Positions 43,519 through 46,465 of a stretch of DNA of 64,000 bases are shown here, piece after piece. The DNA is from Chloropicon primus (taxonomy: Eukaryota). The position numbers and the translations under genes are program-made. Location: the NCBI GenBank assembly GCA_023205875.1, contig CP060760.1:558001-622000 (forward strand), in the 5' to 3' direction. Below the pieces are notes generated by a model. That model saw nothing but the letters and a program-made list of their open reading frames with translations. It did not search any database and had not been told where the DNA came from. Position 1 is the stretch's first letter, and every line of letters begins with the position of its first letter.

Positions 43519-43977
43519 CGTCGCCCTCAGCTGAATCCCCCGAGGGGCCAAAACACCTTGTCCTCCTTGTTGTCCTCCACGATGCCTCTCCGCGATTCCA
43601 CCAACCTTCATTCCCTTGCGAGAGGGTCAATCGAAAGCTCGAGAGAAAACAAACAAACAAAAAATAAATAAGAATGCTTTCGATCACCAGCACCTCCCCT
43701 GTCCTCGCTCTCGTCCTCGTCCTCGTCGCCGCGTTCCGTTCCGTTCCTCTCTCTCGTCCTCGCCCTCTGTCGCTCTCTCGTCCTTCTCTGGTTCCCGCGC
43801 AAAACAGAAACAGTGTTGGAGGTTTTCCCCTGTTGGTGGGATTCCAGTGTATACCAGTTTGGTCACACCCAAAGGACAACCCACTAAGCGTTTTTTTCGT
43901 GTTCTCACTTGCTGGACAAGGCAAATCTATAGTTACGAGGAGTTACGAGGAGGGCAGCGAGTGAAACCCTACCGGTC

Positions 43978-45941
43978 ATGGCGCGATCAGGGAAGCGCCG
44001 TAAGAAAAAGGAGAAGCAGGGGAGTGGCTCGACGAGTTCCACAAGGAGGTCGCACTCTGGCGAGAGTCATGCTCAGGGCGCTTCGAAGTCGGGGCAGGAG
44101 TCTCCGACGACGGAGCGGCCGTTACTTCCGTTCTGGAATCAGGGCTTGCAGTTGCTCTACGCGTTGTGCCTGCTTCCTACCGCGGACGACCCCGCCTCTG
44201 CGGGTGAGGGTTCGAGCTCGTCAGGCAAGCCTCGCAAGAAGCCTCGCAAGAAGGGCAAGAAGAAGAACAAGAAGAAGGGTAAGAAGAAGAAGAACAAGAG
44301 GGGGAAGAAAGCAGGGAAGCAGCCGGGTGGCTTGGCGGACGACAGCGTGAAGAAGACCTGGTTCTCATCGATCAAGAGAGAACTTGAAGAGGTAAAGTGT
44401 CCGAAGACGGGATGGAGGTCGTGCTTGAACCTTCCAGAAGATTCTGTGGTATCCGTGGAGACATTGCAGCCGCCCGCCAAAAGGAAGAGGGGGCAGAAGC
44501 TGAAGACCTCCAAGCTATTGTCGGAGCGAACGGTGATACGGACGAGGAAGCTTAGGATGCGCTTGAACCCTGAGCAGGCGAGAACACTTTGCAACTGGAT
44601 GGGAGCTGCGCGTTTCACATACAACAAGTGTTTGGAGGCGGTCAAGAAGGAGGGTTTTCCGCTGGTTTGGACCGTCCTGCTGGACAGATTTGTGACGGCC
44701 AAACCGCGACGCCCTGAGGTCTTTGAGGGCCTGGAGAAAGAGCTGAAAGAAATCCAATGCTCTCCACGGCCATGGACAAAACAGGAGGCAGAGCTTTTCG
44801 CATCCAAGTGGGCAAGGACCGGGACTACGTTAGCGGGGCCTTTGTGAATCAGAAGCATCCTTGGCTGAAGGAAACCCCCTGTGCCATCAGACAAGCTGCC
44901 GTGCGAAGTCTCATCAAGGCATGGGATTCGAACACCGCGAAGCAGGAAGCGATGAAGGAGCGCGGCGAGAAGAAGGGGCACCGCTTCGTTCTCAAGTATC
45001 GTCAACGTCAGCAACCGAGCTCTTGGACTATTGAAATTGATGCAAGAGAGTTAAAGAACGTGGAGACGATCGAAAGGCCAAACACGAGGCACAAGGATGA
45101 TACGAAGCACAAGAAACGACGCAAGTGGACCAAGCTGGAGGTGTTCAAGAAGAAGATGGCCGGCGGGCCCCTGTACTTGACGGAGGAGATCCCCGGGGGC
45201 AAGATCGAGGGTGCCGTGAAGATCACAAGAAATCGCCTTGGGCAGTTCCACATGCACATTCCCATCGCGACGCCATGGGATCGCCTGCCACCCCTGAAGC
45301 CTGAGAACAAGCGGAAGGTTGTCGCCCTGGATCCGGGAGTCAGGACCTTTCAGACGTCGTACTCGCCGCAAGAAGGCGTCGGGGAGTATGCCAAGGGCGA
45401 GCGAGGCTTCGCGAGGCTGTTCAACCTCTGCTGGAGGATTGATGAGATCATTTCCGAGCGCAAAGACCCAAAGGTGAAGCTCCCTTACCTCGACCGCCGC
45501 GACTTGAAGAGACAGCAATACGCCTGCATGGAGAAAATTCGAGGTCTGACGAACGAGCTTCACAAAAAGGTAGCCAACGATCTATGCAGGAGGTTCGACA
45601 CAATCCTCCTCCCGGAGTTCAAGTCCCAAGACATGGTGAAGAAGAACAACAACGGGAGACGCCGAGTGATCAGGAAGAAGACGGCTCGCACGCTCTTGAC
45701 GTTGAGGCACTATGCGTTCAGAACGTTCTTGGCTTCCAAGGTGCTCTTGCACGGCAGTGAGCTGGCGATCGTGACGGAGGAGTACACCTCCAAGACCTGT
45801 GGCAGGTGCGGACACATCAAGGACAACCTGGGTGGAGCAGAGGTGTACAAGTGCCAGAAGTGTGGCTTCAAGTGCGGTCGGGATGTGAACGGGGCACGCA
45901 ACGTCCTTCTCAAGCACTTGCGTCAACCAAAAAGTGTGTAA
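43978..45941 (+). mobile_element. Fanzor2 (IS607-type TnpB-derived) RNA-guided nuclease gene, split across two frames (43978-44847 and 44757-45941)
   Basis: PFWN and WFS N-terminal motifs, RTRKLRMRLNPEQ...WMGAARFTYN (OrfB HTH), WLKETP..IR..AV, RuvC-I ALDPGVRTF, ILLPEF, VTEEYTSKTCGRC, CQKC, RuvC-III RDVNGARN. Confidence 0.9.
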
Positions 45942-46083
45942 CTCCTCAGGGTTGCACATACGTTTGTTAGTACGGGCTGCCGTGCGTGGGCGGAAGTATT
46001 CGTTCATGTACGGTGGAATGGTCGTGGTAGGGCCGAATTACCCTGCCGAGAAACTTACAAACTCGGTGAAACGACCTTTGCAG
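45942..46083 (+). ncRNA. Putative Fanzor omega RNA scaffold
   Basis: 18-bp hairpin 45977-46016 with 7 G.U pairs, multibranch structure 46020-46076, ends in TGCAG; lies directly 3' of the nuclease ORF. Confidence 0.7.
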
Positions 46084-46252
46084 AAAACTAACAGGTAAGT
46101 TAGGGGCCGGTTCTCCTGTTTCTCTCCGTGTTTCTCTCTTTCAGTGGAAAGGAGAACTTGCCTTTGTGCTTCCAGTATTGACTGTGATTTCCCTACCGTC
46201 CTTTCGTGACTTTTCTGTGTGCTGTTTTTGATCTGATGTCTGAACACCATAA

Positions 46253-46465
46253 CAAACAGTAACGGGCGCCGACGCCGTTGAGTACTACTACCACTTGTAC
46301 GACTCCGACCTGATGCACCTCGCCGCTTTCCAGGGCAGCAAGCAGGTGCTGCAGTGGCTGCGAAGCCAGGACCCGCCTTGCCCTTGGATCCCAAACAGGT
46401 GCAGAATTGTGGCGAAGCACCGCAATCACCAGCGCGTCATCGAATGGATCAATGCCAATTCTTAA
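46253..46465 (+). pseudogene. Ankyrin-repeat gene fragment (no N-terminus)
   Basis: Not in the ORF track; translates to ...LYDSDLMHLAAFQGSKQVLQWLRSQDPPCPW...HQRVIEWINANS*, same family style as 23835-25178. Confidence 0.7.

Follow-up and report, generated by a model that had tools for sequence, protein, structure and literature searches.

A Fanzor2 transposon of Chloropicon primus with a candidate splice donor at the predicted end of its omega-RNA scaffold

The element, its ends and its nuclease gene

The stretch of Chloropicon primus DNA analysed here (64 kb, the window) contains a transposable element that carries a Fanzor2 gene. The element, its ends and its reading frames are as follows.

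43809..43813, plus strand: target-site duplication AACAG, left copy, 5 bp (from the sequence and the ends of single-copy contigs)
43814..46254, plus strand: TIR element TGTT...AACA carrying Fanzor2, 2441 bp, multi-copy and non-autonomous (from contigs, ends and the published family)
43978..45941, plus strand: Fanzor2 gene, frameshifted copy, with ORFs 43978-44847 and 44757-45941
44034..44498, plus strand: decayed frame of the IS607 TnpA (serine recombinase) with stop codons, overlapping the Fanzor N-terminus
44784..44801, plus strand: 18-bp repeat unit, single here and double in sister copies, where 31 nt separate the two units (from contig tables)
46255..46259, plus strand: target-site duplication AACAG, right copy, with the first AG past the element and the predicted 3' splice site

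At the left end, single-copy DNA contigs terminate at 43840 and 43843. For 31-mers, this would place the start of the repeat at about 43811-43814. At the right end the copies diverge after 46254: loose ends and differing flanks were observed at 46254/5 in runs X2, X6, X7 and X8, and the depth of DNA run X2 drops there from 14580 to 275. The sequence-only reading had placed the element boundary near 46083 and had staked its model on that position; the DNA end lies 171 nt further out, an outcome which that reading itself had named as refuting it. The TIR-like ends, the 5-nt target-site duplication (TSD) and the absence of a transposase inside are those of the Fanzor2* TIR elements, the TIR being short and degenerate. 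IS607 elements have a serine-recombinase TnpA and no TSD, whereas here the TnpA frame is decayed and a 5-bp duplication is present.

The element is already published (Yoon et al. 2023, PMC10711439). The C. primus Fanzor2* family is described as non-autonomous, with TIRs and a variable 5-nt TSD, which matches the locus (PMC10711439; bioRxiv 10.1101/2023.08.09.552727), and Table S3 of Yoon et al. contains the sequence of sister copy P0002. The exact right-end pattern had no matches in metagenome contigs. The right flank, 46260-46464, belongs in truncated form to a multi-copy family of repeat proteins with the LQWLRSQDPPCPW motif, and its contig depth is very high.

The protein is a Fanzor2. It matches the Pfam families Cas12f1-like_TNB and HTH_OrfB_IS605, its best PDB match is ApmFz2 (E 2e-20, the REC domain being outside the aligned part), and it shares 87-99% identity with proteins that carry the label Chloropicon primus. 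Its catalytic motifs are preserved: ALDPG of RuvC at 45324, TEEYTSKTC at 45774 with the glutamate shifted beside the zinc finger, the two CxxC of the zinc finger, and RDVNGA at 45879 with the terminal aspartate. The reading frame is broken. Sister copies have two 18-bp units, and thus the window copy is short by 49 nt at 44784-44801 and frameshifted. Intact sister proteins split across two frames when aligned to it, and P0121, the second deposited gene model, skips the same region, so the frameshift is probably real. A programmed frameshift or an intron at 44757-44847 was ruled out, as the sister copies simply have 49 extra bases. A full-length protein cannot be made from the window copy. In the sister copies P0002, P0124 and P0125, both the catalytic motifs and long ORFs are preserved. 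The models P0001 and P0121, from two assemblies of the same locus, disagree at a number of Fanzor residues, at positions where paralogous copies vary as well; gene conversion between copies or assembly collapse could account for this.

The TnpA remnant was found by tblastn within the window with the upstream ORF of homologous locus L005 (E 4e-6). This ORF and that of L004 (partial), both open, were recognised by their motifs and presumably encode IS607 TnpA. At L001, L003, L004 and L005 the reading frame for the N-terminal region of the Fanzor overlaps that of IS607 TnpA, and overprinting is thus suggested as the origin of the Fanzor2 N-terminal domain in this clade.

The omega-RNA scaffold and its 3' end

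The region directly downstream of the gene contains the following candidate RNA structures.

45942..46094, plus strand: predicted omega-RNA scaffold, its 3' end (position 0) at 46094
45961..45974, plus strand: conserved stem-loop 1 with an 8-nt loop (45964-71), of which 45966-71 is the pseudoknot 5' strand
45977..46016, plus strand: long G.U-rich hairpin, a variable arm, much shorter in homologues
46020..46076, plus strand: three-way junction arm, variable
46087..46092, plus strand: pseudoknot 3' strand ACTAAC, followed by AG at positions -1 and 0

The sequence-only reading had recognised here an omega-RNA scaffold of the Fanzor, and in this it was right. As plus-strand RNA, 45942-46110 reaches -62.8 kcal/mol (z -2.85), which 1 of 200 shuffles equals; for the minus strand z is +0.10, with 105 of 200 shuffles as good. 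The covarying pseudoknot described below agrees with this identity. A scan of 45700-46400 against Rfam gave no family above noise.

All motifs listed in that reading are where it put them. The 18 contiguous pairs of the hairpin 45977-46016 comprise 11 Watson-Crick and 7 G.U pairs. This hairpin is the longest contiguous stem on both strands of the window if stems that are less than half Watson-Crick are set aside, a filter applied as the unfiltered ranking is dominated by a GT microsatellite. That it folds only as plus-strand RNA is a matter of degree: the minus strand is indeed weak (-6.2 against -25.0 kcal/mol), but the plus strand keeps 16 pairs, at -7.5 kcal/mol, when folded with DNA parameters. 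The stems GGTCGT/ACGACC (46020-25 with 46071-76), GGTAGGG/CCCTGCC and CCGAG/CTCGG are all present; the unconstrained fold of 45942-46110 lacks the GGTCGT/ACGACC junction, and two later folds contain it. The proposed closing stem TTGCA/TGCAG (45952-56 with 46079-83) can form and is compatible with the remaining fold; however, it is absent from L001, L004 and L005. Neither this stem nor the long G.U hairpin is kept in sequence or length in the homologues. The arms pointed out in the sequence-only reading form the variable part, as does the distal S2 arm of MmeFz2 (PMC12923547).

Two variants of the region were observed. In one, a 722-nt DNA contig of run X2 (record 5, window positions 45952-46050), a variant piece of the scaffold follows a second copy of the hairpin 3' arm; tandem or stand-alone copies of the scaffold possibly exist elsewhere in the genome. 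The other is a second, divergent subfamily (45810-45981, joint 45981>46067), in which the scaffold is common up to 45981, has different middle arms and rejoins near 46067.

In the closest homologous loci, at 42-56% protein identity, a hairpin lies about 20 nt past the stop codon and has an 8-nt loop that pairs with a downstream hexamer, which is followed by N-G. Its counterpart in the window is 45966-71 with 46087-92, so that here too a hairpin loop pairs with bases just before the guide position. In a MAFFT alignment of six loci, made without structure, the six pseudoknot pairs are paired in 100% of non-gap cells, with changes on both sides in four. The covariation score was reached by none of 500 shuffles and slid controls paired at 21-48%, in a test that is partly circular and a control that is lenient, as the pseudoknot and its descriptor were picked by eye from the same loci. 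L006, whose contig stops at the gene end, was excluded; L002, where stem-loop 1 was not found, was left out of alignment A3; L007, without the stem and partly misaligned, was retained. The fixed descriptor matches five of the seven loci (L002 and L007 fail), as against 10-32 of 300 shuffles per locus (3-11%). In the main contigs the pseudoknot strands contain no substitutions.

For calibration only, we used distant relatives. Viral and prokaryote scans returned no closer ones (best-segment identities of 49% or less), and the P0002 query alone found no viral locus. The loop pseudoknot ends 1-4 nt before the point of copy divergence in 13 of 26 multi-copy groups, seven of them at -2; the other 13 have no such pairing in range, and several groups represent one family. 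The homologous locus L001 interrupts a hydrolase-like ORF; the frame and flank resume directly after CGG, and GG precedes the left end. The ApmFz2 structure pairs C(-2) and G(-3) (PMC11832414), and the CboIStron scaffold ends in UCGG, with its last two bases matching the TAM (bioRxiv 10.1101/2023.11.20.567912). Taken together, the covariation, the calibration on relatives, ApmFz2, CboIStron and L001 place position 0 at 46094, two nucleotides after the pseudoknot in the pattern C-N-G, which is CAG here and CGG or CCG in all five homologues.

Thus the conserved pseudoknot, which the sequence-only reading missed, sets the predicted scaffold end at 46094. The end had been drawn near 46083, but the strand at 46087-92 extends beyond it, and AAAACTAACAG (46084-94), which would have opened the guide, belongs by this prediction to the scaffold. 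The loop-to-3'-end pseudoknot, the two unpaired bases before the guide and the long variable arms are common to the omega RNAs of IS607-type TnpB and Fanzor2 (ApmFz2, PDB 9B0L; ISXfa1; L001, L003, L004, L005). The window copy differs from them in that guide position +1 is not flanking DNA, the terminal bases are AG instead of GG or CG, and TnpA is decayed.

Transcripts leaving at 46094 and the right-end extension

Three further features follow the scaffold.

46095..46100, plus strand: GTAAGT splice-donor sequence, beginning at guide position +1 (from the sequence and junction contigs of X5, X6 and X7)
46095..46254, plus strand: right-end extension, 160 nt, intron-like and pyrimidine-rich, with TGAC/TGAT branch-like sites
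46260..46280, plus strand: predicted guide of the window copy after splicing, in the host flank

GTAAGT at 46095 has the sequence of a splice donor. AGGTAAGT occurs three times in 128 kb (the window, both strands), and none of the five homologues has GT at +1. In three of the four likely-RNA runs (X5, X6 and X7, from three studies; the data are contigs of unstated strand, and the RNA label of X4-X7 is a tool's guess) contigs leave the element at 46094-46096 and enter four different foreign sequences. The main contig of X4 stops at 46094. No exit at 46094 is among the loose ends listed for DNA runs X1, X2, X3 and X8. Hence, among the contigs listed, the GT is used as a donor in likely RNA and is unjoined in DNA. 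The offsets of 1-2 nt would fit exons beginning with G or GT. The left end (43756-43983) has almost zero depth in X4 and X5 and is deep in the DNA runs; that X4 and X5 are without a multi-copy left end is as expected for RNA. We conclude that splicing at position 0 very probably occurs. One contig of X4 has 44422 joined to the right end ACTAACGG followed by GTAAGT, that is, the ancestral GG form with the donor retained.

The acceptors are less clear. Among the contigs listed for the eight runs, the joint 46094>46260 expected for the window copy does not occur, and an internal acceptor at 46144 was rejected, as the joint 46094>46145 is likewise absent. None of the four joined sequences matches any of the four other right-flank starts, and thus the acceptors may be distant host splice sites.

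The extension itself resembles an intron. Its TGAC/TGAT sites resemble branch points. No AG occurs at 46176-46257, which includes the last 79 nt of the extension; gaps as long as this 82-nt stretch number 71 of 9059 (P only 0.047 given base composition). The region 46084-46275 folds no better than shuffles (z +0.14), and the extension is thus unstructured. AG is present within the first five flank bases in four of the five distinct starts (GCAGC, AGAGA, CAAGG and AACAG, but not TGGAT), against about one in four expected at the AG density of the sequence, a comparison weakened by the fact that two of the strings are mixed consensus rows. The gene models P0001 and P0121, which are predictions only, resume at about 46260 and use the TSD AG at 46259 as acceptor. 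The predicted intron of the window copy is 165 nt long, close to the mean C. primus intron of 152-154 nt given in the genome report (PMC12301720).

Two further observations concern the extension. Nine of the 12 listed rows of indels between copies fall at 46101-46117, corresponding to positions +7 to +23 of an unspliced guide; they could be scars of self-cutting or the result of repeat slippage. In record 21 of X7 the 3' part of the extension (46161-46220) runs into sequence resembling a host acceptor and exon, which hints that the extension derives from a host intron.

Possible sources of the guide

In IS607-type relatives the guide is read from the directly flanking DNA. Here 160 nt of the element lie between position 0 and the flank. 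The most likely reading, to which we give about an even chance, is that the right end is spliced out and the scaffold, ending at 46094 before the donor, is thereby connected to host sequence that then serves as the guide. The family descends from an IS607 element, in whose relatives the flank starts two nucleotides after the pseudoknot. Here the DNA end lies 160 nt further out, with TIR-like ends and a 5-bp duplication. Transcripts exit, at the level of contigs, at AG|GT (46094/5) into differing foreign sequences, presumably by splicing. The spliced transcript, trimmed from the 3' region of an mRNA, may load on the Fanzor of intact sister copies. Since a spliced guide always begins after the acceptor AG, a TAM with AG as its final bases is predicted, which would match the last two bases of the scaffold as GG does in IS607. 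A cut near the insertion site in an empty homologue or sister chromatid might then promote copying of the element. C. primus is mostly diploid (PMC12301720), so that empty homologues exist.

On the other hand, a target with an AG TAM would still be present next to the filled site, and the element itself, after CAG, would be a match for the unspliced RNA. The splicing model therefore leaves the discrimination of self from non-self unexplained. MmeFz2, with the TAM TAG (PMC10432273) and the TSD TTAN (bioRxiv 10.1101/2023.08.09.552727), may face the same problem of self-targeting.

Among known systems, IStrons such as CboIStron likewise have a splice site at the scaffold/guide boundary of an IS607-type omega RNA (bioRxiv 10.1101/2023.11.20.567912). 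The element here differs from them in having a spliceosomal 5' splice site and in keeping the scaffold within the exon, and its guide would be swapped by splicing. An IStron has a group I intron across the element; here 45700-46400 lacks an Rfam match and the boundary is of the GT type. Introners are algal DNA transposons that bring their own 5' splice site and can recruit a 3' site provided by the TSD or by sequence nearby (PMC9860276). However, they are removed whole, restoring the host mRNA, whereas here the 2.4-kb nuclease-coding element would lose only its final 160 nt.

The comparison with IStrons leads to an alternative that is unlikely in our view. Fanzor bound to unspliced RNA over the pseudoknot might block the donor and use a fixed internal guide from 46095, with splicing serving for disposal of unbound transcripts or for disarming a self-targeting guide. 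Splicing and guide function are mutually exclusive in IStrons (PMC13565253), and unspliced contigs spanning 46095-46254 are indeed present in X4, X6 and X7. The indels at 46101-46117 overlap the Fanzor2 cut positions of about +15 to +21 (PMC10530073), but tandem CT-rich repeats account for them by slippage. Within the window, no site outside the locus matches the fixed guide at fewer than four mismatches, and a sequence that differs from copy to copy would serve badly as such a guide. Beyond 46094, depth falls off much more strongly in the likely-RNA runs (before and past, 1888 and 105 in X6, 1280 and 170 in X7, 282 and 34 in X4) than in DNA run X2 (3573 and 2303), although contig depth is a poor measure.

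It is more doubtful that the splicing is incidental, the ancestral IS607 having inserted into the GG of a host AG|GT junction and a piece of the intron having been captured with a TIR transposon, so that the Fanzor now is without a useful guide. IS607 inserts at GG (PMC10711439; bioRxiv 10.1101/2023.11.20.567912), and exon-intron junctions do offer GG. The X7 contig running from 46161-46220 into an apparent host acceptor fits this history, as do the several broken copies (the window copy and odd gene models). However, P0002, P0124 and P0125 keep their motifs and long ORFs while the overlapping TnpA frame has decayed, and the pseudoknot strands are free of substitutions in the main contigs.

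We consider it improbable that the scaffold extends through the TIR and TSD, with no splicing and a guide starting after 46259. Yoon et al. propose, in a general statement on Fanzor1 and Fanzor2*, that the scaffold apparently includes the TIR and TSD (PMC10711439), and read-through contigs into the flanks in X6 and X7 would agree with that. At this locus, however, the predicted scaffold ends 160 nt inside the element, at the donor: the covarying pseudoknot, which lies beside the guide in solved structures, ends at 46092, and the sequence beyond folds no better than shuffles. In addition, the 5-nt duplication is variable in the family (bioRxiv 10.1101/2023.08.09.552727), and thus cannot be a fixed part of the scaffold. 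The strings "splic" and "intron" do not occur in the portions of the text and supplement of Yoon et al. searched, whose Figs 4A and S3 may show the boundary these authors drew (PMC10711439).

Finally, the boundary first proposed, with the scaffold ending at 46083 and the guide starting at 46084, is already largely refuted and retains hardly any probability, since its closing stem, although able to pair, is missing in three homologous loci, the covarying strand lies beyond it, and the sequence it took for flank is common to the copies from 46084 up to 46254.

The element and its type of pseudoknot are already known. In the literature covered, which included little from subscription journals, we found no report that the spliceosome splices the guide RNA of a Fanzor or TnpB; the IStrons come nearest. 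At somewhat less than even chances, we suggest that this is the first OMEGA nuclease with copy-specific guides made by the spliceosome, in which the acceptor AG is the TAM, alternative acceptors give alternative guides, and a Fanzor2 has been captured by a cut-and-paste transposon.

To the question of how a working guide is kept when Fanzors move from IS607 elements to TIR transposons, the published answer is that the ends were recoded into the scaffold. A splice site precisely where scaffold and guide meet would be an alternative solution, specific to eukaryotes. The predicted scaffold end at 46094 is what reconstitution of this compact nuclease needs. If the splicing model is true, the guide comes from splicing, instead of being read straight from the neighbouring DNA as in the relatives; the choice of TAM would then be tied to the sequence of the splice acceptor, and guides may be programmable by splicing.
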